A stretch of DNA of 63,548 bases, counting the filler, from Jimgerdemannia flammicorona (Eukaryota), in the NCBI GenBank assembly GCA_003990765.1. It is 3 parts of 3 records of this genome, joined end to end, with 100 filler letters (N's around TTAATTAATTAA, not from the genome) between each part and the next. Parts side by side here need not be neighbours in the genome. Positions count along the whole stretch, not along the records: positions 1 to 21,118 come from RBNJ01001527.1; 2 more parts are not named here. One strand, given 5' to 3'. The position numbers were made by a program, and so were the translations under genes. Each line of letters opens with the position of its first letter. The stretch's first letter is position 1. The notes under the pieces were generated by a model. The model was given only the letters and a program-made list of their open reading frames with translations, made no database searches and was not told the DNA's origin. Shown here in pieces: positions 3,792-57,549 of this stretch.

Positions 3792-5067
3792 ATATTCGGA
3801 ACTTGGACATACGCCACCCGCTTATTTATTGTTATTATATCTATTGTATTTTTGGTCATTAAACCTTTGTCTAACATTGAAAATATAGCGTCGTCTATTT
3901 GCTAAATCAATTCGCAGAATAAAAAACAGACATTTCTCATGACCTGAACACATATTTCATCCTCTCAGGGTTGCGGATGCCATTAGGCCAACTGCTATCT
4001 TGTTTTTGAGGCACCATAGGCATTATTGTACAGATGACCTCAGATTTGAGTATAATGAGCTTATTTTTCTGAGTGTTTATTCTTGTTTAGAATATGGTCT
4101 ATGTATAGTGAGATTACAATGAGATATTGCCCAAGACAGTGGTGTTGGATATGATGTCAGTGTTGAATGATTCATTCATCAGGTGGGGTTTTATTTATTT
4201 TAATTTAGAGTCTACTAATCAAGTTATAAATTTTGCTTTATCTTAATACTTTCTTACCAGTTATAAGATTTGGTAGACAATCTTCCAAGTCCACTTTTCA
4301 CAATTTATACCCCCTCTATCTCAGGTTGGTTTGCTGTATCTGTTGTAAAGTAGTGAGAGAGAGATAATAATGATAAGTTGCCTCTTTATCAGTATCAGAT
4401 CAGTATCTACTCTACTTTTTTATAATTTCTGGTATCTTCAGCTATATCTGGGATATACTTATTTTAGTATAGCACTTTCTTCTTTTTGTCATCATCAACA
4501 AGATATCATCTGATATGTATATCACAGACTATATATGGAGTTGGCCAACCTTGAGGTTACCTGTAGATCTTCAGTACTTATGGTAAGGCCCTCTGAGCTT
4601 TGGTAAGCTTCCTAGTGAGTGCAGTTCTGGTATAAGTGATTACTTTTTTAGTAGAGTTGAGATAGAAGAGAAGATGCCTGTTACAGATAAGAGAAAAGAC
4701 AATTATAGTAAACCAGTAGAGTATCAGACTGGGAGCAGTTATCAGGACTGGACTGGGTACTGCATCAGTGGGGCCTTCTGATTGGTGTAGAGTAGTTAGT
4801 TGATAGGTGTCACTCTTGACTACTTTTGGCAATTTATGGAGTTGAGCTCCAGTTGTTGGGATAGTTGGAGGGTCCAAGACTACCCAGATCAGGTATCTTG
4901 GCTGCACTCAACTAGAACTAGGAGCTAATATGATAATATAATTGAGATCTGTAGGCTTGAGTAGTAGGATATTGGGGGTCTCCTCTCACCTCATATGTAA
5001 GTTCTTTACTCATCTTATTGGAGAGAACCAAGTCCTATCTACTATTTTATACTTTGAGAAGAGTTTT

Positions 5068-5532
5068 TGTAATGGTTCTAGTTTCTTTAAGAGGAAGCAG
5101 CTAAATCTAGAAGTTCTAGTTAACCTAAAGTAGCTTGAAGAGATACTTAAAGGTTTAAGTATTCTTGAAGAATTTCTGGAAGAAAAATATTCTGAGCTTT
5201 ATTCAGATAGAGAATAAGGATATTTATACATGATCTGAAAGAAAGATCCAGAAGGATCTTGGAAAGAAAGAGAAATGCCAAGAAATAGATTCTTGGCAAA
5301 GCTGACTAATACTATTCTACAATGTTTCAAAAGGTTCTATAACTAGCTAAGATAAGATACTTGGTGCCAAGAAAAGACAAGAATGTTCTAGTAGTATCTG
5401 GGTACCAAAAGAAGGTTTCTAAGTAAGTAGAAGATAGCAGAACATAGTAGAATGTTCAAGAAATGATAAGAAAAGACTAACTAAAAGATACGAAAATATA
5501 CTAAGACTAAATATGACTGTGAAATTGTTACA
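5068..5532 (-). repeat. 3' LTR of element A
   Basis: TG...CA ends, direct repeat of 10696-11156, adjacent polypurine tract. Confidence 0.95.
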
Positions 5533-5869
5533 TCTCTCCCTCCTTAAGAACTAATATCCTCGTTGAGTTCTTAGATAACATAAGATTAGATATACTTAAC
5601 CAAAATTTCTCAAACTTATATTAATACATTGGTAGGGATTGGCTATCTTTATATAGAATAGAGGGTCTATTACTAGACTAACCAACTGAGAGAAGTTCAA
5701 ACCTAGCTAATAGCTTCATTTTGGTAGACTTCTTGTTTATTAAATGTTCTGCTAATTCTGGGGTCCCAAAGTAAACTTCCAATATATAAGGTACTAATCT
5801 TTGCCATAGGTTGTCAATAATCCAAAGAAGTCACTACAGGGATTGGGCAATGTATTTTGCCTCAAAGTC

Positions 5870-10695: not shown

Positions 10696-11156
10696 TATAA
10701 CAGTTCTAGTTTCTTTAAGAGAAAGTAGCTAAATATGGAAGTTCTAGTTGGTCTAAAGTAGCTCAAAGAGATACTTAAAGGTTTAAGTATTCTTGAAGAA
10801 TTTCTGGGAGAAAAATATTCTAAGCTTTATTCAGGCAGAGAATAAGAATATTTATACATAATCTAAAAGAAAGATCTGGAAGAATCTTAGAAAGAGAAAT
10901 GCCAAGAAATAGGTTCTTGGCAAAGCTGACTAATACTATTCTACAATGTTCCAAAAGGTTCCATGACTAGCTAAGACAAGATACTTAGTGCTAAGAAAAG
11001 ACAAGAATGTTCTAGTAGTGTCTAGGTACTAAGAGAAGGTTTCTAAGCAAGTAGAAGGTAACAGAACATAGTAGAATGTTCAAGAAATAATAAGAAAAGA
11101 CTAACTAAAAGATGTGAAAATGTACTAAGACTAAATATAACTGTAAAATTGTTACA
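10696..11156 (-). repeat. 5' LTR of element A
   Basis: Aligns end to end with 5068-5532. On + the left terminus TGT has decayed to TAT. Confidence 0.95.
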
Positions 11157-11642
11157 GTTTTTCTTTATCTATTACTCTCTTTGTAGTAGCAAGAGCTATA
11201 CAAATCAGCTTAGACATGACCTTATATATATATTGGAGTTTCAGATATATATCTAAAGTATATGTTTATTACTCTTTAGTAGTAGGAAGAGTATAGTATA
11301 CAGAATGAGATATAGGCAACTTTGCTCTATTGTACTTGATATAGTTGAGCTACTGGATAATAGCTAGCCTAGATTTAATAGAGATATAGTACTTGATGGA
11401 TAGTGGGGGAGGGTTTTGGCCTATATAGTATAATGGTGACCCCAGAATGATGACATCAGCACAAGAGACAGCCTTTCCTTGCAAGCTACCAGATCGGAGT
11501 ACAGAAGATCATATAGCATACAAGATGAGCAATAATAACTAACTGTGAGTCATTGTAACCACAGCACAAGCATCTTGAGGAATATAAAAGAAGGATCAAG
11601 GAACCACAGTAGTAGTAACCAACAAGACTCACTAATCCCAAA

Positions 11643-12479
11643 ATAGCTCAAAGACTTACTACAAATGAAATACCTGCTGCCCACCAAACCTCAAGGTCAA
11701 GGAACTACCAAGGCACCTCAGTCAAAGAAAGGATATTTCAAGACATCAGAAGAGCTATGAGGACCTGCTCAAGAAGGACTCCTAGTGTCGACCTGGGTAC
11801 TACAGACCCTTATCACTTTATTCTCTACTGCCGTGAAATGGAAACAAGGATTACCATTACTACTGAATGCCTCCAAATGTAGCAGGAGTACAAAATAAGA
11901 AACCTCCTCTGCTGGGAGTTTCCACAGGCCAGCCCTCAAGAGCTACAAGATGCCACTCCTATGGATATATATGAGGTAAGGACAGCTAAAAAGATCCATC
12001 AGATCTTCAGGCATGTATCATAGTTGATCCCCAACTTGGAGTATGTTAGAGTCTCAGATTTCAGAGACCTATCATCCCACCATATCAATGCACTAGAAGC
12101 CAGAGTGGCTATAGAAGCCCAGTCCACTATCACCCTCAATAGTAATGAAGTAGAAGACTTCTGGCACCCCATCCTCCAAGACAACCCAGACTAATTCCTG
12201 CAAGGATTGATCTCAGTATTCCAAGGTCCAAGCATCTGGGTTAGATCTCTCCAAGACCTCACATTTGTCCTCTATTTTGTGGAAGAGAACCTCATAGACT
12301 GGAGAGCCCCAGACCTCCTTCCCGCTGCTGAATATAATGACATCATCAGCAATGACATCATCCCACATGACATTGAAGTACGTGAAAATGATGAATTCAT
12401 GGATCTCATCTCCTTTGAAGATATCCTGACCTCTGATGACGAGGATGAAGCCCCCATAGTTCTAAGATTTCTGCTCTAA
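11643..12479 (+). pseudogene. LTR-embedded ORF of element B, 278 codons, unknown protein (second copy 18881-19717)
   Basis: Only 3 stops and no frameshift in 278 codons. TATAAAA lies at 11583-11589. The frame is preserved in both LTRs. The start is ATA in both copies, inferred to be a decayed ATG. Confidence 0.7.
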
Positions 12480-12489
12480 GTTCCTTGTT

Positions 12490-12620
12490 ACACTGAATAA
12501 TGCCAGCACCAGTATTTTGATATAACACTGGATAATACCAGCACTGGCATTCTGAGGTGATGCAAAATTATTCCAGCATCAGTATTCTGATGTAATACTG
12601 AATTATACCAGTATTCTGAA
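12490..12620 (+). repeat. About 3.5 degenerate tandem copies of a 35-bp unit in the B LTR (also 19728-19858)
   Basis: acactgaataatgccagcaccagtattttgatata / acactggataataccagcactggcattctgaggtg / atgcaaaattattccagcatcagtattctgatgta / atactgaattataccagt.. Confidence 0.85.
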
Positions 12621-13089
12621 TCTGTATATACAACTATCAGTGCCAACTCTGAAACTTAGTAGTTTTAGTTATTGGAATTTATATTTAGCTTTATATCTTA
12701 GCAACCATTGAATTATATTTTGTATAAATATCCCTCTTATTTTCTCTCAAATAAAGTCAGTTTCTCTCAGTGCAATATACACACTTCCTTGCAAGTAATC
12801 TAAGAGATAACAAGACAGTTTAAAGATAAGAAGTTTGAGGACTATAAGATCTTGGGAAGGCACTCCAATAAGAACTTGCTTATAACAAACTTGAGTTAGT
12901 CTAAGAGATATATCTTAAAGAGAATCTGGCATATTTAAAGGAATCAGTAACTACTATGTGACAACTTGGTGCCCATTGGCTGGTAATTCAAGATGAATCT
13001 CTCACTTTCAAGCTGAAAAATGAACAACTCCCACAACAACTACCCTGACTACAAGAGTCACCCCTGCAAGAATTCAAGACAAGATAAAA

Positions 13090-16000
13090 ATGCATTCCCC
13101 AATATTCTATGGATATACTACTGAAGAGTCAATTCTGACCTTCATTGAAGACTTTGAACAATTCACTGCCATACAAGCCCTTGGTGTAGATGCTCAATTG
13201 GTCCTTCTACTAGTCAGCCTCAGAGGACCTGCCAGAGATAAGTTCAATATAGTCACTATTACTGATGCTGGTGGAGCCAAACTTGCCAATATGAAGGCCT
13301 TCCTCAGAACAATATATTATACCAAAGAGATCAAGCAAGCTCTCAAGGATCAACTCAATACTATCTGCTAGAGACTTAGTGAAGATCCCAACTCATTCTA
13401 TACCTGAATCTGCCACCAGATTGTCTTGGCTGGCTATGATGACCACTTCAAGGAACAAATAGTGGATTCAACTTTTCTCAAAGGAGTTCACCCTGAAATT
13501 GCCCTAGCAATCCAGTCTACTCCAGCTGCACTGACCCTTGATCAGAAAGTGGTCTTTGCATAGAGATATTAGACTGCCAGACACTCTGCTGAACACTCAA
13601 TAGAGAAAATAACTGGCATCAAGATGGAGCCATCAAAGCCAACTAGTATCATACCCACCACAGTTGTAAACAGACAACCAACCCCATCTACCCCCAAGAC
13701 AGCCAAAGCTGACCCAGTGAAAGAACTTGCCAAGCAGTTTGCCAAAATGACTGCACATCTTAGTAATGTTGTTAAAGAAGTCCAAAGTACCAACAGGAGA
13801 CCAGTGCAGAGATTTGCAGCTACTACAGAAGAATGCAATATTACATATTTCAGATATAGAGAAGAAGGCCACTATACAAAAAATTGTATGACCAAAACAA
13901 GACACAAAGCCCAACTAAGTAATGCTAGCAGAACCAGAGAACAAACCAATGTAGTAGTCATCAAGGAGATTGGTGACACTGATGATGAAGAATACTACAA
14001 AGAGCTTGAATTCTACCCTGCTATTGAAGGTACCAGAACCCAGTCCAAGCCCTATGACAAGAAGAGCAACAGCAAGCCAGTTGGAAGATCAAAGAAGACC
14101 CCAGCTGTCACTATTCAAAGCAAGACTCAACCAGAGGAGATTGATCAAGACATGGAGTTAGATGAAGCTGCCCGCCAAATCATTGAAGGCACTACTCCAG
14201 TCTCAGGAGAAAGTGAAAGCAAGAAGGAATAGAAGCTGCACAAGACCAAGATCCACCAGTATGACATCTACAAGGACCTCAAGGAACAGAAGGTCAATGC
14301 CACTTTTGGGCAGCTAGCCAAAGTCCCTACCTTTAGACAGCAGTTGAGAGTAGGACTTGCAACTACTGCCAAGAATCAAGAGTACAAGATTGTAGAAGCT
14401 CACAATGCACAGGAAGAATCCAAGAACTCAGGTAAAGAATCCGAAGCTCAGTACAAGACATCAGCCTATATGTACCTCATGTCAGATTGAAGACTATATC
14501 TTTGATGCCATCATTGATACCAGTGCTGGAGGATGCCTCATGAGCAAGAAGGCAATTGACTACCTAGGTTGGAATGTTGAAGAGTCCACCAAGATGGTCT
14601 ATGTCACAGCAGATGATACACAAGCTACCCCCCTTGGCAAAATCTGAGAAGTCCCCATCAAGATAGGAGGAGCTACTATCCCAGTAGATGTGATTGTCAT
14701 AAGCACTACCAACTATGACATCCTCATTGACAATCAATGGCTTCATAAGACCAAGGCCATCATTGACCTCAATGTCCAGAAGATGCAGATCAATTATAGA
14801 GAGAGAAAGGTATGAGTCTCTATCAATGTCCATAAAGAAGTTCTATCAGACATGGAGGAAGGAGATGAAGAGGACACAGAGGTCTTCATGCACTTGGTGA
14901 ACAAGAACAAGAACAAGACACCCAAGCTCACAGATGAGCAGTGGTACAACAAGATTATCAATGGCTATACTCCTCAAGAAAGATGCCCCCATGATACTAG
15001 GATGTACTGCTCTGAACACCTGAATGACTGCTGGTCCTGTATCAGTGAAGTCAGAAAAATCTGCCAACAGAAATATGAGCAAGAAGCTGCTGAAGCAAAA
15101 AGGAAAGCTAAAGAAGATGACCAGCCCCCAGAGCTTCAGGCTGACAGTGACAATGAGGAGAAATAAGAATCAGACATCACCCTCAAGGTCAAGAAGTTTC
15201 ACCCCAAAGCCAAGATCCCAGAATACAAGACTGAAGGAGCTATAGGAATGGACCTTACCAGCATTCAAGATGCTACCCTCGAACCACAGACCACCACCCT
15301 ACTTGGTACTGGAATTGGAGTCAAGCTGCCAGAGAACTATGCTGGAATTATCAAGACCAGGAGCAGTCTGACCAAAAGCAAAATCTTAGTTAAAGGAGGA
15401 GTAATTGACCCTGATTACACTAGTGAGATCTTCCTTATAGTCAGGAATCACAACCACACCACCCCCTTCAAACTTAAGAAGCATGATAGGATTGGCCAGA
15501 TGCTGATCTATGAAATCAAGAAGCCCAAGATCATAGAGGCCATCGAACTTATTAAGACTAAGAGAGGAGAACAAGGCTTTGAATCTACTGGAAGAGGAGC
15601 CTATGCTGTCACCAAAATTACTGAACTTGAGCACAAGAAAGATAAGGACCAGAACAAGTACACATATATCATTGGAGAAAACTTTCCCCTGGAGGAACAA
15701 CTCCTCAAGATCCTGCACCAGAATGAAGGAGTACTTACTATAGACTTCAGGGATATCCATAATCAAGAACCCAAGTACTACTATAAAGTTGATACTGGTG
15801 ATACCAAGCCCATCTACCAGAAAGCCAGACCTATACCACCTGCCTACAGAGAGTGGCTGTGAGCAGAACTCAAGGAAATGGAAGAAGCTGGGATCATCAA
15901 GCAAGCTATCAGCCCCTGGGCCTCACTCATTGTCTTTGCCCTGAAGAAAGGAAGCAAGCCTGGAGAATTTGCACCAAGACTCTGCATTGACTACAGAAAG

Positions 16001-17113
16001 CTCAATGCCATCATCAAGAAGGATAGGCAGCCCTTACCAAATATTCAAGAGATCCTTACCACTCTTGGAAGTGAAGCCAAATACTACACCACCTTGGATC
16101 TGTTCTCAGGCTTCCATCAGATTGGTCTCACTCAAGATGCCAGTGAGAAATCAGCCTTCATCATACCTGATGCCACCTATATCTACCTGCGAATGCCATT
16201 TGGAATGTACAATGCTCCAGCAAGTTTCCAGTGAATGATGAACAGAGTCTTCAGCAATGAGATTGGAAAATGGCTCTTTGTCTATATTGATAATGTGATC
16301 ATCTTCAGCAACACTGCACAGGAACATATCAATCACATACAGCTAGTCCTCAAGAAGCTCAAGGAGTATGGCCTCTACATTAAGCCCAAGAAATACAAGT
16401 TTGCAGCTCAAGAAATCGCCTACCTAGGACACCTCATCAACCAGACCAGAATCCATACAGACCCCATGAAGATTAAGGCTGTTGTAGCCTACCCAAGACT
16501 CAGAACAACTATAGAAGTCCATGCCTTCCTTGGACTAGCCAGCTACTACAGAAGATTTATCAAAGGATACTCCAACATTGCAGCACCTATCTACAAGCTA
16601 CTAAAGAAGGAGACCAAATTTGAATAGACTCAGGAGTGCCAAGAAACCTTCAATAAACTCAAGACCAGGTTGACCCAAGCACCTATCCTCAGAAGACCAG
16701 ATTGGAACCTAGAATTCATCCTGCAGACAGATGCAAGTACTATAGGACTTGGAGCAGTCCTAGCTCAGAAGAAAGATGGACATGAATATGTCATCTCCTA
16801 TATAAGCCAAGGTACCTATAGAGCAGAACAGAACTATAAGTCATATAAGCTCAAATGCTTAGTAGTAGTTTGGGCAGTAGATAAGTTCCACTACTACCTA
16901 GCTGAGAAATACTTTACTATTCAAACAGACCACTCTGCTCTTGCCTGACTATTCCACACCCTGAACCCCAAAAGAATATATGTCAGATGGATCTACAGGC
17001 TGTAAGAGTATGACTATACTGTCAAGCACCACTCAGGAAAGACCAACACCAATGCCGATATACTCTCAAGGATACCCCAAAACACTCCCATCAAGACTAT
17101 TCAATATGAATAA
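13090..17113 (+). pseudogene. Element B gag-PR-dUTPase-RT-RNase H polyprotein; dUTPase about 15185-15595
   Basis: Gag-like PIFYGYTTEESI, decayed zinc knuckle, protease, dUTPase motifs, RT and RH motifs. Ends KTNTNADILSRIP..QYE* (TAA 17111-17113). Confidence 0.92.
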
Positions 17114-18368
17114 GGAGCTATACTATAGATTAATCAGCTATCTTGGGCAGTAGAAGATGCCCAATCACCTCAAACCCTGGACAATCACTATCATCAACCA
17201 GACTTAGAAATAGTTTGAATTAGATAACACTATACTCAGAAAAGGAGGAAAGCTAGTAATACCCAAATACAAGAAGTATCAAGTAATGAAGGAAGTACAT
17301 GAGCAAGGACACCTAGGAGGAACCAACATATATAACAAAGCAAGAAGAACTATGTAGTGGTCCAAGATAGAAGAAGACCTGTGCCAATTTGTCAAAGAGT
17401 ATGATAAGTGCTAAAAACAGAAATAAGATCAGCAAGACCAGGCACCCAGGTCATCAAGAATTGAGCCTATCCCCTTCCACCACATCATAATAGATATCAT
17501 TAGACCACTACCAGTAACATTATCAGGAAACCACTATATTATAGTTATTATAGACCTCTTCACCAAATGGATAGAGGCAGGAGCATTACAAGAAGCCAAT
17601 GCTCTCTCTATAGCTGACTTTCTGTACTGAGAGATTATCTGCTGCTACAAGACACCGAAGCAAATCACAACAGACTATGGCACAGAATTTGTCAATGGAT
17701 TCCATGAGATAATATATCAGAAATACAAGATCCAGTACATCAAGACCACTGTATACCATCCTCAAGGAAATGGACAGACAGAGAGAACCAACAAGACCCT
17801 CAAGAACATCCTAGCGAAGATCTCAGAGACATATGAGAATTGGGATAATTATCTCCCAACTGTCTTCTCTGTCCTATGAGATATATAGTCACAGAGCACA
17901 CACTTTACCCCAAGAGAGCTGCTCTTTGGAGAAGAAGATTCTGATGGAACCTCAGCCACAAATCTAGACCTAACTTGGAGATGGGTTGATGCAGAAATCC
18001 AGAGACTATACCAAATTAGGAAGAAGGCTGAAGATTATATCACCAAGTCACAAGCACTAATAAGGAAGAATGTGGAAAAGAATCACAAGGCCCTAGAACC
18101 CATCTGAATCAGAGAAAAGGTTCTACTGTATTGAAATATGGTAGAAGCCTCATGGTCATGAAAACTGGAGCCCAAATGGGAAGGACCCTTCTATGTATAA
18201 GATATCAAGGGAACTACCTTCTGGCTTAGAAAAATCTCAGGGACCATACTGCCTACCATGGTACATAGGAACAGACTCAAGAAGTACCACAAACCTATAC
18301 AAGAGAAGCAAAATATGATGACCACTCATGAGGTTCTAGTCTGCAAATCATAACAGCATATCCCATGA
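17106..18368 (+). pseudogene. Element B integrase, apparently a separate ORF
   Basis: ATG at 17106 (MNKELYYRLISYLG), HHCC-like HEQGHLG..YDKC, IDIIRPLP, IDLFTKW, YHPQGNGQTERTN and KLEPKWEGPF. The end is 18353 or 18368. Confidence 0.85.
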
Positions 18369-18666
18369 CCAGCAGGCTATCTGTCTGGACCATTCTCTAA
18401 GAGATATGGCACTGGCAACTACTCATCCATGAGACTTTTAAAGTCAGAGGAGTTTGAACTGTCAACTGATTGGTCAAGATCAGAATCAGGCCCTTGCTCT
18501 ATATGAAGAGAGCAATCCTTCACCATTATGCCAAAATACAAAGAGAAGATGCCAACCCATAAATACCACTTTTCGACCCCTTACCAGAGGTTATAGGATC
18601 AGCAAATTTTTCAGGACTGGACCAATGAATAAGGATGCTCAGGAAGATCCTTATTTAGAAGGAAGA

Positions 18667-20201
18667 TATAATAGTGACCCCAGAATGATGACATCAGCAC
18701 AAGAGACAGCCTTTTCTTGTAAGTCATCAGATTGGAGTACAGAAGATCATATAGTATATAAGATGAGCAATGATGACCAACTGTGAGTCATTGTGACCAC
18801 AGCACAAGCATCTTGAGGAATATAAAAGAAGGATCAAGGAACTGCAGTAGCAGCAACTAACAAGACCCACTAATCCCAAAATAGCTCAAAGACTTACTAT
18901 AAATAAAATGCCTACTGCCTGCCAAACCTCAAGGTCAAGGAACCACTAAGGTATTTCAGTCAAAGAAAGGATGTTCCAAGACATCAGAAGAGCTATGAGG
19001 ACCTGCTCAAGAAGGACTCTTAATATTAACCTGGGTACTGCAGACCCTTATCACTTTATTCTCTACCACCATGAAATGGAAACGAGGATCACTATTACTA
19101 CCAAATGCCTCCAAATGTAGCAGAAGTATGAAATAGAAAACCTCCTCTGCCAGGAGTTCCTACAGGCCAGCCCTCAAGAGCTACAAAATGCCACTTCCAT
19201 AGATATACATGAGACAAGGATAGCTAAAAAGATCCATCAGATCTTTAGGCATGTATCATAGTCAATTCCCAACTTAGAGTATGTTAGAGTCTCAGATTTC
19301 AGAGACCTGTCATCCTGCCATATCAATGCACTAGAAGCCAGGGTGGCTACAGAAGCTCAGTCTACTATCACCCTCAATAGTAATAAAGTAGAAGACTTCT
19401 GGCACCCCATCCTCCAAGACAACCTAGACCAATTCCTGTAAGAATTGATCTCAGTATTTCAAGGCCCAAGCATCTGGGTTAGATCTCCTCAAGACCCCAC
19501 ATTTGTCCCCTATTTTGTGGAAAAGAACCTCATAGACTGGAGAGCCCCAGACCTCCTTCCCACTGCTGAATGTGATGATGTCATTAGTGATGATATCATC
19601 CTGCATAACATCAAAGTATGTGAAAATGACAAATTTGCAGACCTCATCTCTTTCAAAGATATCCTGACCTCTGATGATGAGGATGAAGCCTCCATGGTCC
19701 TGAACTTTCTGCTCTAAGTTCTTTATTATACTGAATAATGCTAGCACCAGTATTTTGATGTAATACTAGATAATGTCAGTACTGGCATTCTGAGATGATG
19801 CGAAATTATTCCAGTACTGGTATTCTGATGTGATACTGAATTATACCAGCATCCTGAACCTGTATATATAACCATCAGTGCCAACTCTGGAACTTAGTAG
19901 TTTTAGTTATTGAAATTTATATTTAGCTTTATATCTTAGCAACTATTGAATTATATTTTGTATAAATACCCCTCTTATTTCCTCTGAAATAAAGTCAGTT
20001 TCTCTCAGTGCAATATACACACTTCTTTGCAAGCAATCTAAGAGATAACAAGACAGTTTAAAGATAAGAAGTTTGAGGACTATAAGACCTTAAGAAGGCA
20101 CTCCAATAAGAACTTGCTTATAACAAACTTGAGTTAGTCTAAGAGATACACCTTGAAGAGAATCTGGCATATTTGAAGGACTCAGTGACCACTACATGAC
20201 A
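18667..20201 (+). repeat. 3' LTR of element B
   Basis: Follows the PPT and matches 11429-12963. Confidence 0.96.
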
Positions 20202-20245
20202 ATAGTCTAGGGTTTCTTCCAATATAATCTGCAGAACTTTGGGTC

Positions 20246-20288
<43 letters not shown>

Positions 20289-21218: not shown

Positions 21219-21680
21219 CCAAAACCCTCCCCCACCACCCACCAAGTACTGCCCCCCCATTAACCTAGGCTAGCTATTGTCCAGCAGCTTGACTATGTCA
21301 GGCACAGCAGGGCTGATAGGCCTGCACCTCATTCTGTGCACCATGCTCTCCCTACCACCAGGGGAAACCCAACCATATGCCAATGACCGAAAGTGCATGC
21401 CTGAGAACCCAACGTATGTACAAGGTCATGCCTGAGCCAAATAGAATAGCCCCTGCCACCCCAAAGAGAATGACAGGTAAATAAAAACCCTTATCAAAGC
21501 ACAACATAGTGGGTAGGGCCTAGTTCTCCCAGTTGAGGTGAGTAAAGGACTTATACGTGAGGTGGGAGGAAACCCCCAATACCCCACTACTCAAGCCTGT
21601 GGGCCTCGATCACATTGCCATGTCAGCTTCTGGTTCCAGTTGAGTGCAGCCAAGATGCCTAAAATGGGTAGCCTCGGGCC
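21219..21680 (-). mobile_element. Second, less decayed copy ('Y2') of the poly(A)-element 3' region, fused to LINE copy a
   Basis: Colinear with reconstructed Y1. Similarity to the other LINE copies stops at gtggcttcctcc (about 21682). Confidence 0.7.
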
Positions 21681-22297: not shown

Positions 22298-23778
22298 TGT
22301 AAGCACACAATCTCTAAGCCACCAAAATCGCATAGCATCCTCAGAACTAATTCAGAAACCACATACGAGACTACAAAACAAGAGATCATCTGGTTACACG
22401 AAATATGCCAGCAAGCATGAGAACCCACTGCCAAGATACAAGAATACTAGATGAAGTACTACAACTATAAGACTGACTCTGAACTGCTATAACTAGTTTG
22501 GTATACTGTACTATTACAAAAGGAAACCGAAAGTACCAAACTCAAATTGAGACAAGAAGAACCCTATCTCATCTACCAAAAGGTTCACGAACTACACTTA
22601 TCAACTCAAGACCAGGATACACTACAGCTATACAAGACCTCATTACTTAGCAGAAGTAAAATGCATTTGAACAACTCTGTTTGCTCTATCTGTGTCACCT
22701 CCGTTGGAGAGTGACAGATGTTTCATCTGAACTCAAGAAAGCCAACAATGTCAAAACCAATCTCAAGCCATCCATGTGACAGATATTACTACTAGAAATT
22801 GCCTCAGATTACAGAAAATATCATTTCCAAGAGGTTTGAACCCCCAGCTGCGACATTGGGAGCCCTCACCCTAGATGAGAATGGCCAGTCCTCGCAAATG
22901 TACCAGCAGACTAAAAAAAAAGAAAACCAAGACCTGTTATCCTTGTACAACCACTGCCACCAAGGACAGCCTTAATCTTGCAAGAGATAGAAGTAATGAT
23001 ATCTTGAAACTGATGATATCAGAAGTCAGAAAACTGCTCAGACTTTGCCAGCAATGATGTCATCAATGTGATATCATCAAGAACTAACCAGACAGTGCCT
23101 AAATCTATAAATAGCCTAGCAGTCATAGTATAGTTAGATTAGCCTTGTACGACATAACTGTGAACTAACTCAGCAGTCAGACAATCTCTTGATATGTCAG
23201 ATCACACTTATACTACGTGACTGCATTCCAACTCAGCAAGGCACTTAGTGCTACATCCATATCTAGCATAGTCCCAATAGCCCCTCACTAGTATAAATAC
23301 CCCCTCCCCCAGACCTCAGAATCTCAGACTCGAACACACAAGAACATTCCTGAATACTTCCCCACAATATTCCTTCACACAAATACTCCTAGTATAGCAA
23401 TATCATGAATAGCAAATAAACCTATTCCATAACCCACAAATCACTCTTAAGTAAATCCACTCCCCATTAGGTCCTACTCCTAACCCCCTCACGAAATTTC
23501 CTAATTGGGTATTGTCTGCAGTGATACGCCAATTCAACTAAGCTGGTCTTAGTTTCTTGAACTTCCTGAAATATGGAAAATCCTGAACATCCAGAACTAG
23601 TCCAAAAAAGGACTTTGGTTGAGACATCAACCTGATCTTGAAATCAATAAGCATAGAGGATGTACTCTATACAAAATTGATCTTGACCATAAGAAAACAG
23701 TCTTCCAGAACATCCTGAATATCCAGAAAACCTTTCCAGAACTATGTAACAGTTACCCTAAAAAGTAACCCTCTTACA
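22298..23778 (+). repeat. 5' LTR of element C
   Basis: Direct repeat of 27172-28651; TATAAATA at 23292. Confidence 0.95.
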
Positions 23779-23789
23779 ACTTGGTAGCA

Positions 23790-26700
23790 GTGGTTTACAA
23801 TCCAATTCCACTTCAAGATGCTTCCTCACCCTGCTACAAACCCTTCTGAGAATTCCTACAAGTTAGTATAAAGCCCAACCTCTGAACTGGAATTTATCCT
23901 GAACTATCTGACAATTTGGAGAGAATTGAACCTGACATACAAGGACAATTTGACCTCCACACCTGCAACAAGTGGGACAAACTTCATTCAAAGAAAGAAG
24001 TACTCAGGTTAAACCAGCAAATAGGCAAAACCCTATTCACCGAACTCCTTGCACTACACCCAGCAAGTCAAGATGAAGAAGGTCTTATTGAAGCCTTCTT
24101 TACTCTTCTCAATAAGAGTTTTGTTAGCTCTACAAATCTGAGTGACCTAGGACAACCAGCAGCAGTCTTTCTAGCCTTAGTTCCTCACGAAGCCCAAGCC
24201 TCTGTAGCCAAGTGGCTCAACTCTACCGACTTTCACCACACCAGGACCAAGACTGCCTTATACTACTGATTCCAGAACAGTAAGGCCCACCATATTCTTA
24301 AAGAAGAAGCAAGAGAAACCCTTTATCAACTACCTGACCCCGAATCTGAAGCAGGCCCTGCTATAGCCCTACCTGAATCTGAAACCAATACCAAACCTGA
24401 ACTTAACTTTGAATTAAGTTCATCTGAAATCAGATATACAACTGATTCTGTCTACTTTGACGCCGAGCAAACCCAATTACATAGGGACCAAACCGAAGAA
24501 GAGGAGGAGTATCTCAGTGAATTTGATCCCAGATATACTACTGAAGGAGAAGTACCTCCATCAGGACAGAATACATCTATACAGCAACAAACAGTTATCT
24601 ATCAAGCCCTCACTCCAGACCCACAACTACTACTCTAGCAACTTACACAGACCCAAAGAACACCATCACACTCTGCACCAGTACCTCAAGTAGTACCAGT
24701 ATCACCAGTACCAGCAGTCCAACTGCCTCCAGTAAACAACATGGCAAACCAACAGATTCTAGACCTCACAGCCCAGGTAGCTATAATGGCAGCAACCATT
24801 ACTACCTTAGCCGAACAGACCCGACCTACCAAAAATCTGAGCCTACCTACCTTCAATGGTACTGCACAAGAAGTCCAAAGCTTTATTAGTATAGTTGACA
24901 CCAACTTCGAAGCCAATCAATAGACCAATGAGCGAGTGGCTGACCGCATTCTGACAAACAATTAAGACCACACTCTGGAACAACTCTTTGCTACCACTAC
25001 AGCCTATATCCACTGAGTTGTTACATTCTTCCGAGGACCTGTCAAAGAATAGTGGCAAACCCTTTCTGAAAAACCCCTCACATGGGATATCCGACCTGCA
25101 GTAGTTGCCCAGAATGCAGCAAATAATGTCCCAGGATATGGAGCCCATCTGGCAGCCCCTGGACTCAAACAACTCATGATTGCTCAATACCACAGCGAAA
25201 CCATGATTGCTAAATCTCAAGTAAAACTCCGCAACCTCAAATTTGATGTATATGGCAAAGAAGAATTCGAAACCTTCTATACAAAACTCGAGTCACTCCT
25301 GAATACTGTTGGCCTAGGATATATCGCCAACGACAAAGCATGAAATGGTATAAGAGCAGACCATTTATTTAATGCCCTGCCTGAATGGTTTACTAGAAAA
25401 ATCTGAGAACAAGGCCGCCCAGTTGGTTGTAATCACCAACAATGGTGCCTGGCAAGAATCAAGACTATGGTCAAGCGAATCCTAACAGCTGGACCAATTC
25501 TGCCCTGAAGACAATTTAACAACAAGGAAAGGACTTAGACCAAGAAAGAAGAACCCAAGCATGAAGCATCCCAAGCTCCCTCCACATCCACCTCTTGGAC
25601 ACCCAGAAATCCTGAACCCACCCAGTCCAGTACCTTCAAGAAACTTACTGAAGGTGAAAGGAATGAACTTTGAAGAAGTGGAGCATGCTTCTATTGCCGA
25701 GAGACAGGACACATGACCAGTGCCTGCCCCAACCAAAAACCCCAAACAGCAACATGAGCAACTATTACCACTCTTCACCACCTCAACAACCTGACCACCA
25801 GAACACTAGACTTTGTCAAGTTAAGATAAACTGCTAAGGCCCCAACCAAAAGAAGTCAAAAAGCAGCTGGATATGACCTGTATACAGCTGAAGAAGCTAC
25901 AGTTTCTAACCAAGAAGTCAAACAAGTCTATACAGGAATCAGTATCCAAATCCCTAAAGGACATGTTGGAAGAATATGCTGTTGCAGCAGCCTAGTGCTA
26001 AAAGGACTCTCAGTAGAAGGAGGAGTCATTGATGAAGATTATACAGGCGAAATTATTGTCCTCATTCGAAACTACAGTTGGACACCCTTCAAGATCTCTA
26101 TTGGCTTCTGCATTGCCCAGATCCTATTCGAAATAATTGAGTCAACCCTGGCAGTCAAGGAAGTCCCTGAACTACTACCCACCATCCGAGGATCCAAAGG
26201 ATTTGGCTCATCAAACAAGGCTCCAGCCCAACCTACCATGAGCAAAGAAGAACAATTCTACAAGAAGATCAAAGATGGATATGTACCAAGTGGCTGATGC
26301 CCTCATGGCATTGGAATATACTCTTCCTGAATGATTGATAATTGCTTCTCTTGTGTCAACAAACTGGCTCAAAGAAGAACCAATAGAAGGAAAGCTCCTA
26401 CAACTGAAATCACCACCATTGGATCAGACAAACTGCTTACCCTTAAGGCTTTTGTCAATGGAGCTCCTGTTAAGATTATGATAGACAGTGGCACCTCAGG
26501 CAACTTCATCAATGAAGAGACAGCCAACAGACTCAAGGTCTTCACCTCTCCAGTATAGCAAACTCAAGCAGTTGCTACAGCTGATGAGACCTCACATATT
26601 ATTAGCAAAGAAGTCCGCAACCTATCCTTCTGAATTGGTGACTACTGAGTACATGTTACCCTCCAAATCGTACCACTTCTTGACAATGAAATCATCCTTG

Positions 26701-27171: not shown

Positions 27172-28651
27172 TGTAAGCACACAACCTCCAAGTCACCAAA
27201 ATTGCATAGTATCCTCAGAACTAAATCAGAAACCACATGCGAGACTACAAAACAAGAGATCATCTGGTTACACAAAATATGCCAGCAAGCATGAGAACCT
27301 ACTGCCAAGATACAAGAATACTAGAAGAAGTACTACAACTATAAGACTGACTCTGAACCACTATAACTAGTTTGGTATACTGTACTATTATAAAAGGAAA
27401 CCGAAAGTACCAAACTCAAATTGAGACAAGAAGAACCCTATCTTATCTACCAAAAGGTTCATGAACTGCACTTATCAACTCAAGACCAGGATATACTGCA
27501 GCTATACAAGACCTCATTACTTAGCAGAAGTAAAACACATTTGAACAACTCTGTTTGCTCTATCTGTGTCACCTCTGTTGGAGAGTGACAGACATTTCAT
27601 CTGAACTCAAGAAAGCCGACAATGTCAAAACCAATCTCAAGCCATCCATGTGATAGATATTACTACTAGAAATTGTCTCGAATTACAGAAAATATCATTT
27701 CCAAGAGGTTCGAACCCCCAGTCACGACATTGGGAGCCCTCGCCCTAGACGAGAATGGCCAGTCCTTGCAAATGTGCCAGCAGACCAAAAAAAAAGAGAA
27801 CCAAGACCTGTTATCCTTGTACAACCACTGCCACCAAGGACAGCCTTAATCTTGCATGAGATAGAAGTGACGACACCTTGAAACTGATAATATCAGAAGT
27901 CAGAAAACTGCTCAGACTTTGCCAGCGATGATGTCATCAATGTGATGTCATCAAGGACTAACCAGACAGTACCTAAATCTATAAATAGCCTAGCAGTCAT
28001 AGTATAGTTAGATTAGCCTTGTATGATATGACTGTGAACTGACTCAGCAGTTAGATGATCTCTTGACATATCAGATCACACTTGTACTACGTGACTGCAT
28101 TCTGACTCAGCAAGGCACTTAGTGCTACATCCATATCTAGCATAGTCCAGATAGCCCCTCACTAGTATAAATATCCCCTCCCCCAGACCTCAGAATCTCA
28201 GACTCGAATATATAAGAATATTCCTGAATACTTCCCCACAATATCTCTTTACATAAATACTCCTAGTATAGCAATATCATGAATAGCAAATAAACCTATT
28301 CCATAACCCACAAACCACTCTTAAGTAAATCTGCTCTCCGTTAGGTCCTACTCCTAACCCTCTCATAAAATTTCCTAATTGGGTATTGTCTGCAGCGATA
28401 CACCAATTCAACTAAGCTGGTCTTAGTTTCTTGAACTTCCTGAAATACAGAAAATCCTGAATATCCAGAACTAGTCCAAAAAAGGTCTTTGGTTGAGACA
28501 TTAATCTGATCTTGAAATCAATAAGCGTAGAGGATGTACTCTATATGAAATTGATCTTGACCATAGAAAACAGTCTTCCAGAATATCCCGAATATCCAGA
28601 AAACCTTTCCAGAACTATGTAATGGTTACCCTAAAAAGTAACCCTCTTACA
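27172..28651 (+). repeat. 3' LTR of element C
   Basis: Follows the PPT, ends ctcttaca, and is followed by the TSD. Confidence 0.95.
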
Positions 28652-54919: not shown

Positions 54920-57549
54920 CCATTCCCACGGCAGTCCACCATCCAGTCCACGTTCGCTCGTCCAGGCCACGTCCACCCATATAGTCCGCGTTCACTCGTC
55001 CAGTATCCACTTTCGCCCATCCAATCCACGTTCGCTCGTCCAGTCCACCATTATCCCATTGACCTCCGGTGCCGCCCAGTTCACGTGGAATCCATTCTCA
55101 ATTATTGCTCAAATATATTATCTATTCCCTCAAATTACAGTGCATTGAATGTGCTTTATTTAAAAAGTATGTTAATGTAAATATATCAATGTAAATCAAG
55201 CAATATTCTTTTCAATATAATGAAATACCCTTAACCATGGAAGAAAAACATGTTGAAATTAAATTAAAATAAAATAAATATCTATATATTGTGATATAAA
55301 TATGTAAAGCTACTCAACTTAGAAGGAATGATATTATATTCTGTGATAACTACTTTCATATATCATTATTGATAAATTAATATGATAGCTAAATAGTATC
55401 ATCTGATGACTTGGTCTGATTCATTCCCCAACTCTTATAATGTGGATATGTGATCAATAATAGAAGTATAACAAATTGTTACATATCTATAAGCCACTGA
55501 AAATTTCAACAGAAATTCCTATGAAAATTCTTTATAGAAATTCCAACTAGTAGTCATAGTTATCTAAAATAGTATAAATGTATATGAATATATTCAGTGT
55601 ACTATATTTAATCATAGCCTTAAATATGTATAAATACTCTCTATACTGAGTATATTGTAACCTTAGAGAACTTTCAGATCTGACTTATTAATAATTCTGA
55701 GTCTAATTAACTTAAGATATAAGTATAGTAATTCTATCAGTATAAGAACCCAAAAGCAATATCTGGACTCTACTATAATAGATAATTAGAACTCAGTACT
55801 TTCTTGAGAACTTAGAACTTAGAGCCAATAGTTATCATTAACTATTTATAATATATTAATTCTATCAGTATATAGTTTTATTATATAGAAAAAGAAACTA
55901 AAAAAATTTATATAATTCTATTTTAAGCCATTGGTTACATTATTTAAACATTAAAAATTCTCAAGTAGTAGCCTTATAATACTCTTTAAAATAAGTTCTA
56001 TTTATTATACAAACTACTACTCTACTTCTCCAAAGGTTTATATCTTTATAGCTATTAAGAAAACTTACTTCTACTCAGATATCTCTAAGCATCTAAACTT
56101 CTATATTGAGGATCTGGAACATTTATCAACTACTGTCAAATTATTATATAATAACTAAAAAAACTTTTAACTAATTAGTTTTTTAATATAAATATAAAAT
56201 TAATTAAAGACTTTAATATGAAACAAAGAGCAAGACTTTTAAAACCTTATTTAAAAAGAACTTCTAACTATTAGACAAATTAAGAAGACTCTTTAGATCT
56301 ACCAAATCTTATTATATATATTTTCCAAGCTATTGCATATTTTTAAGATATTATTCTTCAAGATATTATATATCTTTTAAAAGAAGATTCAATTAGATAA
56401 CGCAGAAATATATATATTCAACTTTATTAAATATAATTATATTTGAGTTATATAAAATAGAAGATTCTAAATTTACTCTATCAGAATTTTTCACTTCTCT
56501 TCTATAAGATAACTAAAAAGATTATCTTATAAACTTTATAATAATTTTTAAAAGATTATTTATTATTATTGAAATATCAGAAGGAATAACTAAAACTACT
56601 CACTATTTAGTTAGTTACTTATTATACTATATTATATAAAAATTACTTTAAAAGATTTTAGATATTACTTAAAAGAAAAGAGAACTTATTCTAAATATAA
56701 TTCTTCAGAATTATCAATTGAAAAAGAAGAGACTATAAAATTTATTAGTTTTCTATTATTTCTTAATTATTTAAAAATGACAAAAATAATTAATCTAACT
56801 TTTATTTTATTAATACTTAGTCTACTCTTCTATAATTTAAGAAATAAATAGTTAAATTATAGATCTTACTAATTGAAGATTATACCATTTTATTAATACT
56901 GATAAATATTTTTAATCTATATTTAGTTAGTTAATAACTTTATTATTATCAACTACTATTTATAATAAATCTTACTTAATATAATCTAGCTTCTAATAGT
57001 ATTATTTATCAATATTATAACTTATAAATATTTTGTTTAGTTTAATTTTATAAATATTCTAATCTTATTTTTATTGATATTAACTTTACTATTATCAACT
57101 TATTACTATTAGTTATTATTATTAATAACTTTATTATTATTTTTATTAAATAGTCTTACTTAGTAAGAATTATTATACTACAGTTTAGCCTAATTTATAT
57201 AAATAATTCCATAGACTAGAGTTAATAAATCTTAGTTTAATTTACTATAATAAAGTATAAAAAACTTTATAAAATTAAAATGAAGTTTTAGAGAATAAGA
57301 TAACTATATTGAATAATAGATACTTAAAGTTTAATTTAATAAACTTTCTTATTATTATGATGTATAAATAATAGAGTGTAATCAGATAATATAAATATTA
57401 TAGTTATTAGTTTATATTGTGAAATACTTAAGAAGAAAGAAGAGGCAGTATTGTTTATTACTAGTTTATATACTTTTATATATATTGATAATATCTTACA
57501 AAATGATATAGTCAGGCTGCATCACTATATATCAAGTTACTATAACTAA

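Follow-up and report, generated by a model that had tools for sequence, protein, structure and literature searches.

Does the long terminal repeat (LTR) of a fungal retrotransposon harbor a protein-coding gene of its own? The question is raised by element B, a Ty3/gypsy retrotransposon residing in a 63,548-nucleotide stretch of Jimgerdemannia flammicorona DNA (three parts of assembly GCA_003990765.1 joined by filler letters; hereafter, the window). In the 5' LTR of this element a first-pass annotation, made from the sequence alone, had noticed a long frame poor in stop codons and preceded by a TATA box, and had called it a gene. We regard it as probable that a genuine, conserved accessory protein gene is located wholly inside the LTR of a dUTPase-bearing Ty3/gypsy lineage, and that the frames found in the window are dead copies of it.

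The frame inside the LTR and its relatives

The open reading frame (ORF) is present in both LTRs of element B, the one element for which this is directly visible. The two copies, and a repeat contained in the first, are as follows:

11670 to 12479, plus strand: LTR-borne ORF, 5' copy, 269 codons and a stop; codon 1 is ATA, internal stops are TAG 11880, TAG 12021 and TAA 12192
18908 to 19717, plus strand: LTR-borne ORF, 3' copy; codon 1 is ATG, stops are TAA 18947, TAG 19118, TAG 19259 and TAA 19439
12336 to 12373, plus strand: 15-nt tandem repeat, 2.5 copies, in the acidic tail of the ORF (Tandem Repeats Finder)

The first-pass annotation had described the 11643-12479 frame (278 codons) as interrupted by exactly three stops (11880, 12021, 12192) and by no frameshift, and so it is, the alignment of the two LTRs being gap-free. 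The exchange of stops between copies was also read correctly: the third stop of the 5' copy (12192) is CAA in the 3' copy, the private stops of the 3' copy (18947 and 19439) are CAA in the 5' copy, and the TAG pair at 11880 and 12021 is common to both. Stops are indeed fewer than expected by chance. The interval 11619-12479 has 4 in 287 codons, the terminal one included, vs. 11 to 31 in the other five frames, and any 287-codon stretch with four stops or less was obtained in 2 of 300 mononucleotide shuffles of the LTR. The start had been misplaced, the end-to-end alignment of the intact relative P0009 setting it at 11670 and not at 11643. The TATA box was located properly, at 11583; as the start moves to 11670, it lies 87 nt, not ~55 nt, before the start codon.

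Shuffles alone are only suggestive, and the reality of the gene is settled by its homologs, because these reach an E-value of 2.5e-115. The stop-masked translation of the window ORF was compared by phmmer to 1.84 billion (1.84e9) representative proteins, and five relatives were found, 31-82% identical to the query, with E-values from 2.5e-115 to 3.3e-4:

P0002: 247 aa, 82% identity, E 2.5e-115
P0003: E 1.1e-37
P0004: 40% identity, E 1.6e-33
P0005: 342 aa, 35% identity, E 5.1e-29
P0006: 31% identity, E 3.3e-4

When 5.8e9 proteins were searched with profiles, 12 and 11 matches were obtained, and the whole family amounts to 16 distinct proteins, one of which is weak. All relatives derive from metagenomes, where they reside in contigs of 567-4848 nt; they are named "hypothetical protein" at most, and carry no precomputed Pfam domain. 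The intact ones are 247-342 aa long, and fall into at least three diverged subgroups. Members of the subgroup nearest to the window copy are 63-79% identical to P0009, with P0013 at 47%; identity to P0009 is 41-48% in the P0004, P0005 and P0008 subgroup, and 27-29% in the P0006, P0011 and P0015 subgroup. Residues 1-271 of P0009 (271 aa, intact) match by tblastn both the 5' copy (11670-12476, 71% identity, E 4e-124) and the 3' copy (18908-19714, 69% identity, E 6e-119). A hidden Markov model (HMM) of the family recognizes the two copies with independent E-values (i-E) of 4e-110 and 1.1e-111, respectively. No significant match to it was found in the repeats of elements A and C, also located in the window. 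Neither genome nor viral contig collections, when scanned for relatives of the ORF, yielded any, and fused forms sought among proteins of 600-2000 aa were not found, a result which is weak evidence.

The relatives tell how the window copies were altered. P0004, P0005, P0009, P0011, P0015 and the ORF of a metagenome locus described below (P0018) start with MP where codon 1 of the window copies aligns. All relatives covering the first of the shared TAGs have W there, the seven close relatives (7/7) included. At the second, W is found in all covering close relatives (5/5) and in the P0006, P0011 and P0015 group, Y in P0004 and P0008, E in P0005. The site of the private TAA is Q in nearly all relatives, and position 12192 is C, not T, in every covering contig of four metagenome runs (17, 13, 6 and 4 contigs). 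By this comparison, the lost start and the stops of the window frames are transition mutations of sense codons, and both frames are the pseudogenised remains of an orphan gene that is real and conserved.

The first-pass annotation is thus borne out in its core, a protein-coding gene inside the LTR of element B, by intact homologs and by the match of P0009 to both copies from end to end. It had taken the shared TAGs for decayed TGG or CAG codons, and the W found at both sites in close relatives agrees with TGG. Homologous ORFs, the lack of which in related elements it would have held against a gene, were found in the form of the 16 proteins above, several of them with M at codon 1. None of the findings that it had listed as telling against a gene (stops kept, no start codon, insertions or deletions ignoring the frame, no homologous ORF) was made.

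The two ORF copies differ at 33, 23 and 42 sites at codon positions 1, 2 and 3, respectively, and codon changes between them are nonsynonymous in 53 and synonymous in 30 cases. Divergence per site is 0.121 in the ORF and 0.087 in the rest of the LTR. Divergence of the ORF copies looks neutral, as expected of dead copies.

How the copies decayed was inspected in the whole element. The first-pass annotation had implicitly attributed the stops to repeat-induced point mutation (RIP). While its TGG to TAG and CAA to TAA calls are right, the RIP indices of element B are negative (TpA/ApT 0.83; (CpA+TpG)/(ApC+GpT) 1.51). Transitions between the two LTRs occurred at per-site rates of 0.42-0.44 at CpG, 0.14-0.15 at CpA, 0.09-0.11 at CpC and 0.02-0.03 at CpT. 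Classic RIP of the Neurospora type, in which TpA/ApT is high, (CpA+TpG)/(ApC+GpT) low and CpA the favoured target, was discarded as the cause of decay on these indices (by the usual thresholds) and context rates. Deamination of methylated cytosines would fit the decay of element B better, because transitions hit CpG about three times as often per site as CpA. The block at 56-58 kb is RIP-like (TpA/ApT 1.18; (CpA+TpG)/(ApC+GpT) 0.79), so that the window seems to preserve traces of two distinct modes of decay. Changes from the window to metagenome contigs, counted over the whole element, are mostly A to G (160-180) and T to C (205-224), those from C to T (43-79) and G to A (34-68) being fewer; given the excess of A to G and T to C changes in the contigs, the window copy is the mutated one.

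The same genome may once have hosted a second lineage with this gene, because a sequence matching the most distant subgroup (P0011/P0015) is found elsewhere in the window:

56009 to 56600, plus strand: possible third, heavily decayed remnant of a distant family member (tblastn and HMM matches; weak)

Residues 10-50 of P0015 match this sequence at 54% identity by tblastn (E 9e-8, with a 6.5-kb subject), and colinear, weak HMM matches cover 56024-56323 (i-E 0.009) and 56481-56600 (i-E 0.059). The similarity concerns the N-terminal part of the P0011/P0015 subgroup, and the remnant, which is short and heavily AT-mutated, resides in a block with RIP-like indices and a GC content of 15-23%.

Element B, its putative promoters and a related locus

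Element B is a bona fide Ty3/gypsy (Metaviridae) LTR retrotransposon insertion, as paired LTRs, a target site duplication (TSD), an empty site, a primer binding site (PBS), a polypurine tract (PPT) and the order of Pfam domains all attest. Its components are:

11425 to 11429, no strand: TSD ATAGT, left copy; the same 5 nt are at 20202-20206, and the empty site is in X2 and X5 contigs
11430 to 12963, plus strand: 5' LTR, 1534 nt (BLAST match to the 3' LTR)
12967 to 12979, plus strand: PBS-like sequence starting with TGG, 3 nt past the LTR end
12980 to 18656, plus strand: decayed internal region with gag-like frames, aspartic protease, dUTPase, reverse transcriptase, RNase H and integrase core (Pfam; interrupted by stops)
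18657 to 18666, plus strand: PPT, directly before the 3' LTR
18668 to 20201, plus strand: 3' LTR, 1534 nt (BLAST match to the 5' LTR; contigs spanning the junction)
20202 to 20206, no strand: TSD ATAGT, right copy, matching the left one (empty-site contigs)

The LTRs align as a single BLAST segment of 1536 nt (11429-12964 vs. 18667-20202; 89.5% identity, 0 gaps), and 158 of their 161 differences are transitions. With the LTRs so set, the 5-bp duplication flanks both ends of the element. The empty site was recognized at contig ends in the metagenome runs X2 and X5, which jump from 11429 to sequences resembling 20207 onward. Other copies of the element are documented by contigs spanning the junction of internal region and LTR (X4 record 24, 18499-18701; X5 record 32, 18462-18802). 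Joints between the two LTRs in metagenome contigs (e.g. 11499 to 18741) may denote solo LTRs or the mere equivalence of the LTRs, and were not used. Further copies of the element B LTR were not found within the window, nor did a search of a phage DNA collection with it return any match. The LTR ends with CA, and starts with ATAATG in both copies; either the first bases have decayed or the boundary may be 1-2 nt off.

The internal region contains many stops. Pfam domains occur in the order protease (PR), dUTPase, reverse transcriptase (RT), RNase H, integrase (INT), the dUTPase being thus located between PR and RT. Match E-values are 4.5e-27 for dUTPase, 6.5e-14 and 3e-12 for RVT_1 and 1.7e-32 for RT_RNaseH_2; the matches to protease (4e-4) and the rve_3 integrase core (3e-3) are below curated thresholds.

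The signals recognized in the LTR, and a motif preceding it, are:

11583 to 11590, plus strand: upstream TATA box TATAAAAG, placed 87 nt ahead of codon 1 of the ORF and matched at 18821 by the 3' LTR; the octamer recurs in locus L001
12496 to 12624, plus strand: tandem repeats of 35 nt, imperfect, filling the space from the end of the ORF towards the second TATA box; enhancer-like by position (repeat search)
12723 to 12728, plus strand: second TATAAA; twin in the 3' LTR at 19961; presumed promoter of the genomic RNA, by its position before AATAAA and U5
12750 to 12755, plus strand: AATAAA, the sole one in the 5' LTR; twin at 19988; putative poly(A) signal
18488 to 18535, plus strand: conserved motif at the 3' end of pol, common to elements A, C and L001 (alignment with B)

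The 5' LTR has two TATAAA motifs (11583, 12723), both with a counterpart in the 3' LTR (18821, 19961); a further one, at 18898, is private to the 3' copy. About 150 nt of LTR precede TATAAAAG, and about 210 nt separate AATAAA from the LTR end. The 35-nt repeats are three overlapping copies of 59 nt spaced by 35 nt, visible as an off-diagonal BLAST segment, and are spaced in the same way in the 3' LTR. The ORF (11670-12479) lies past the PPT, where U3 is found in the usual organization of LTRs, between the start of the LTR (11430) and the second TATA/AATAAA pair (12723/12750). Its placement in U3 is suggested by the unit formed by repeats, TATAAA and AATAAA, which looks like a canonical U3 enhancer and promoter followed by a short R, and would mark the U3/R boundary. 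The upstream TATA box is the candidate promoter of the ORF.

A scan of metagenome loci identified one locus only, L001 (1535 nt), with an intact ORF. This is 291 codons long, and its product is 37-40% identical to the window copies. In L001 the pol 3' end motif comes first, then a short run of purines, TATAAAAG at 296-303, and the ATG at 376. The distance from TATAAAAG to the start codon is 80 nt in L001 and 87 nt in element B, and ~25 nt of leader before the ATG can be aligned between the two. At E < 0.05, BLASTN of L001 against element B aligns the ORF interior and the leader and start region only, the remaining LTR being unaligned. As judged from these alignments, the coding part and the signals immediately upstream are the conserved part of the region, the pattern predicted by purifying selection acting on a gene.

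The motif of ~48 nt at the end of pol probably encodes the C-terminal end of the polyprotein. Positions 3-57 of L001 match by BLASTN 22862-22908 and 5673-5627; the latter stretch is the minus-strand motif of element A (5627-5673), and lies ~95-140 nt before the 3' LTR of that element.

The protein, its possible role and rival explanations

The first-pass annotation had predicted a helical core and an acidic tail. Two AlphaFold2 models, headed by P0009 and P0005 and built on the same 15 sequences, are of low confidence (mean predicted local distance difference test, pLDDT, 52 and 51, respectively). Both feature helices to residues ~185-190, beyond which come a pair of short strands and a tail modelled with low confidence. 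In P0009, residues 1-60 include 13 K+R vs. 5 D+E, residues 211-270 include 18 D+E vs. 4 K+R. Models and composition are consistent with the predicted organization. The tail varies highly in length among relatives and ends in a conserved hydrophobic motif, and the 15-nt repeat found there encodes a repeated acidic-hydrophobic pentapeptide.

Searches for known folds or families gave nothing that could be named. No Pfam family matched the window ORF at E-values up to 10, and the 15 family members gave only sub-threshold matches to ATG5_HBR (3/15, E 0.028 or worse) and NpmA (1/15). A profile search of PDB with the ORF family gave 0 matches at E-values up to 10. In structural comparisons, run with the low-confidence models, VIA-align reached a best Z of 4.4 among 48,161 chains, none being at 5 or above, and the best E-values obtained by Foldseek were 1.0 for PDB and 0.28 for BFVD; with models of this quality, a lack of matches carries little weight. 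The fold check proposed in the first pass hence returned a modelled helical core and no fold match by Foldseek, with models of low confidence. In the ESM Atlas the best feature scores (0.90 for a 94-aa open piece, 0.83 for P0009) pointed to unnamed clusters, and structures did not exceed a TM score of 0.33. Sag and Nef families gave no Pfam match to either the window ORF or the 15 members, and the fold searches bearing on them ran on low-confidence models.

A basic or helical body joined to an acidic, motif-rich tail is seen in many transcriptional regulators and viral accessory proteins. By analogy, a trans-acting factor aiding the expression of the element itself, or its escape from silencing, would be the likeliest role, if still a doubtful one. 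In an intact element the upstream TATA box would drive a short mRNA of ~1.1 kb within one LTR, ending at the AATAAA of the same LTR (12750), so that any LTR, even a solo one, would be a gene complete in itself. Genomic RNA would be driven by the second TATA box (12723), located after the 35-nt repeats. In the protein, a helical core would be followed by a disordered tail of acidic character and preceded, in the close subgroup, by a basic N-terminus. The factor could activate the LTR, or antagonise methylation- or SUMO-linked silencing by the host through the hydrophobic-acidic motifs of the tail. Solo LTRs would keep the gene and form a standing pool of helper genes, on which defective copies could draw in trans. 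The view of each LTR as a complete RNA polymerase II gene (TATA box, leader, ORF of 270-340 aa, poly(A) signal) for a new trans-acting retrotransposon factor is offered tentatively, and is unlikely to hold in full.

Several points weigh against the presence of a functional gene in the LTR. Both window copies are dead and the family is tiny, 16 proteins, all of them gene-finder calls on contigs of 4.8 kb or less, so that their frames are open partly by selection. The basic N-terminal cluster is not conserved in the distant subgroups, and no fold, Pfam or PDB match backs any function, the models having a pLDDT of 52 and 51. In L001 the ORF could sit between pol and the LTR, this locus being too short to set the LTR ends. 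TATA-like motifs are common in AT-rich DNA, and promoter use, transcript ends and translation are predictions from the sequence. The shared TAGs were probably already present in the template RNA, and element B would have been inserted from an ORF-defective template, because the observed rates make it improbable that each of the two TGG codons was hit separately in each LTR. If so, the ORF was not needed in cis for transposition; a pool of helper genes acting in trans would explain the insertion of such a defective copy.

The promoters may also be read differently, the upstream TATA box (11583) being the main or only one. R would then extend from ~11615 to polyadenylation near 12775; as the first cistron of the genomic RNA, repeated at the 3' end of the latter, the ORF would have no transcript of its own from U3. 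In line with this, the TATA box and leader conserved between element B and L001 are the upstream ones, only 27 nt separate TATAAA (12723) from AATAAA (12750), and no counterpart of the second TATA/AATAAA pair was seen in the 285 nt following the L001 ORF, which favours this arrangement slightly. Yet L001 may end short of its second promoter, an R of ~1.1 kb would be exceptional, and 35-nt repeats, TATAAA and AATAAA placed ~210 nt before the LTR end have the look of a canonical U3/R/U5 array. We consider this arrangement unlikely. A host gene, or a fragment of it, might instead have been transduced into the LTR without serving the element. Gene transduction by LTR retrotransposons has been described (PMC7264820), and the shared TAGs indicate that the ORF was apparently broken before element B transposed. 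But open frames and conserved blocks are kept in three subgroups at 27-50% identity, L001 retains the position after the pol 3' end, transduced ORFs are found in one or few copies according to the excerpts of PMC7264820 available, and no host-like, named or longer relative turned up in protein searches; such a passenger is very unlikely.

It is extremely unlikely that the ORF was left by another mobile element which had inserted into the LTR prior to the spread of the family. Nested insertions are frequent in the window, where element B itself is inside other repeats; the ORF, however, lacks any Pfam domain, be it of a transposase, an RT or otherwise, neither further terminal repeats nor a second target duplication were seen inside the LTR, and the layout is conserved in L001. 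A chance open frame, with no gene behind it, has a virtually null probability: the low stop count is reached in 2 of 300 shuffles, but homologs with E-values down to 2.5e-115, intact proteins at 35-40% identity among them, refute it.

An accessory gene conserved inside the LTR, the reading which we prefer, has parallels in retroviruses. MMTV (mouse mammary tumour virus) sag, lentiviral nef and spumavirus tas/bet are accessory genes located in, or overlapping, U3, and spumaviruses use a second promoter for accessory genes. Accessory genes set complex retroviruses apart from plain retrotransposons. Like sag, nef and tas/bet, the window ORF is a sense accessory ORF located downstream of pol, in or overlapping U3, and found in both LTRs. 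Unlike them, it has no sequence relation to those genes, as judged by Pfam, and belongs to an env-less Ty3/gypsy retrotransposon, in which the whole ORF and its own TATA box are inside the LTR. The gene would thus work like a retroviral U3 accessory gene, while falling by sequence outside those families, in a new orphan protein family. The Cassandra elements of plants, which are terminal-repeat retrotransposons in miniature (TRIM), carry a 5S RNA gene in their LTRs. They also have an independently transcribed gene in every LTR, which differs from the window ORF in being an RNA polymerase III RNA gene, not a protein-coding one with an RNA polymerase II TATA box.

Among the matches listed in a literature search for ORFs in or within LTRs, none deals, as judged from the listing, with an LTR retrotransposon gene of that kind. 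Additional ORFs (aORFs) of LTR retrotransposons are described in the available parts of PMC7264820 as internal, located upstream of gag or, in most cases, past pol and before the 3' LTR, and as either sense (env-like) or antisense; at least one of them, gene23 of the maize Grande element, is transcribed from its own promoter (PMC7264820). The window ORF resembles aORFs, as outlined there, in being an extra ORF conserved in related elements and lacking similarity to known proteins, and departs from them in position, being located past the PPT and in both LTRs (PMC7264820). The brtn gene of the Boty-like elements of Botrytis cinerea is likewise an extra gene, without assigned function, in a gypsy element of a filamentous fungus; according to the portions available of PMC8365987, PMC4227169 and PMC7264820 it is antisense and located between pol and the 3' LTR, whereas the window ORF is sense and inside the LTR, a distinction drawn from description and not from sequence. 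The placement of dUTPase seen in element B, after PR and before RT, is also reported for fungal gypsy elements, i.e. PosPlaTy3-5, Phanerochaete elements and Tuber Tmt1 (PMC2864245), and for elements of bdelloid rotifers (PMC5408684), in the parts of these papers at hand. The excerpts of PMC2864245 mention, unlike what is found here, no LTR-borne gene for the fungal elements, and a figure legend assigns to some of them an "additional ORF with unknown function".

A gene located wholly in the LTR would be doubled at each insertion and would survive on solo LTRs after loss of the element. It could be transcribed without the genomic RNA, and act in trans on other copies. Were its function regulatory or anti-silencing, it would be the retrotransposon counterpart of retroviral regulators, and also a source of orphan genes hidden from annotation by the masking of transposable elements. 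The family is concrete and testable: a number of its sequences are intact, a transcript of ~1.1 kb is predicted, and the promoter motifs are defined.

Neighbouring sequences

A further LTR element, element A, probably runs along the minus strand; its LTRs are 458 nt long (5075-5532, 10703-11156; 90.6% identity). Its outer flanks (4871-5068, 11157-11419) resemble 21219-21680 in inverted orientation, and elements A and B are therefore both lodged within a repeat that predates them. In this older repeat, 44 nt past the right TSD of element B, a stretch of 37 A (20250-20286) may represent the tail of a retroposed or non-LTR sequence. Gene-like flanks, encoding an F-box-like protein and a ketopantoate reductase-like one, reside in sequence with a GC content of 53%; together with the AT-rich, RIP-like block at 56-58 kb, they would suit a fungal host. 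The region 22000-48000 is a tandem array of at least five units with a period of ~4.87-5.3 kb and a strong C-over-G strand skew (GC skew to -0.5). Gag-like frames and a second dUTPase-like frame (25830-26297), judged by eye, are found in the first units, and the best-kept pair of units shares 1481 nt at 93.6% identity (22298-23778 vs. 27172-28651).

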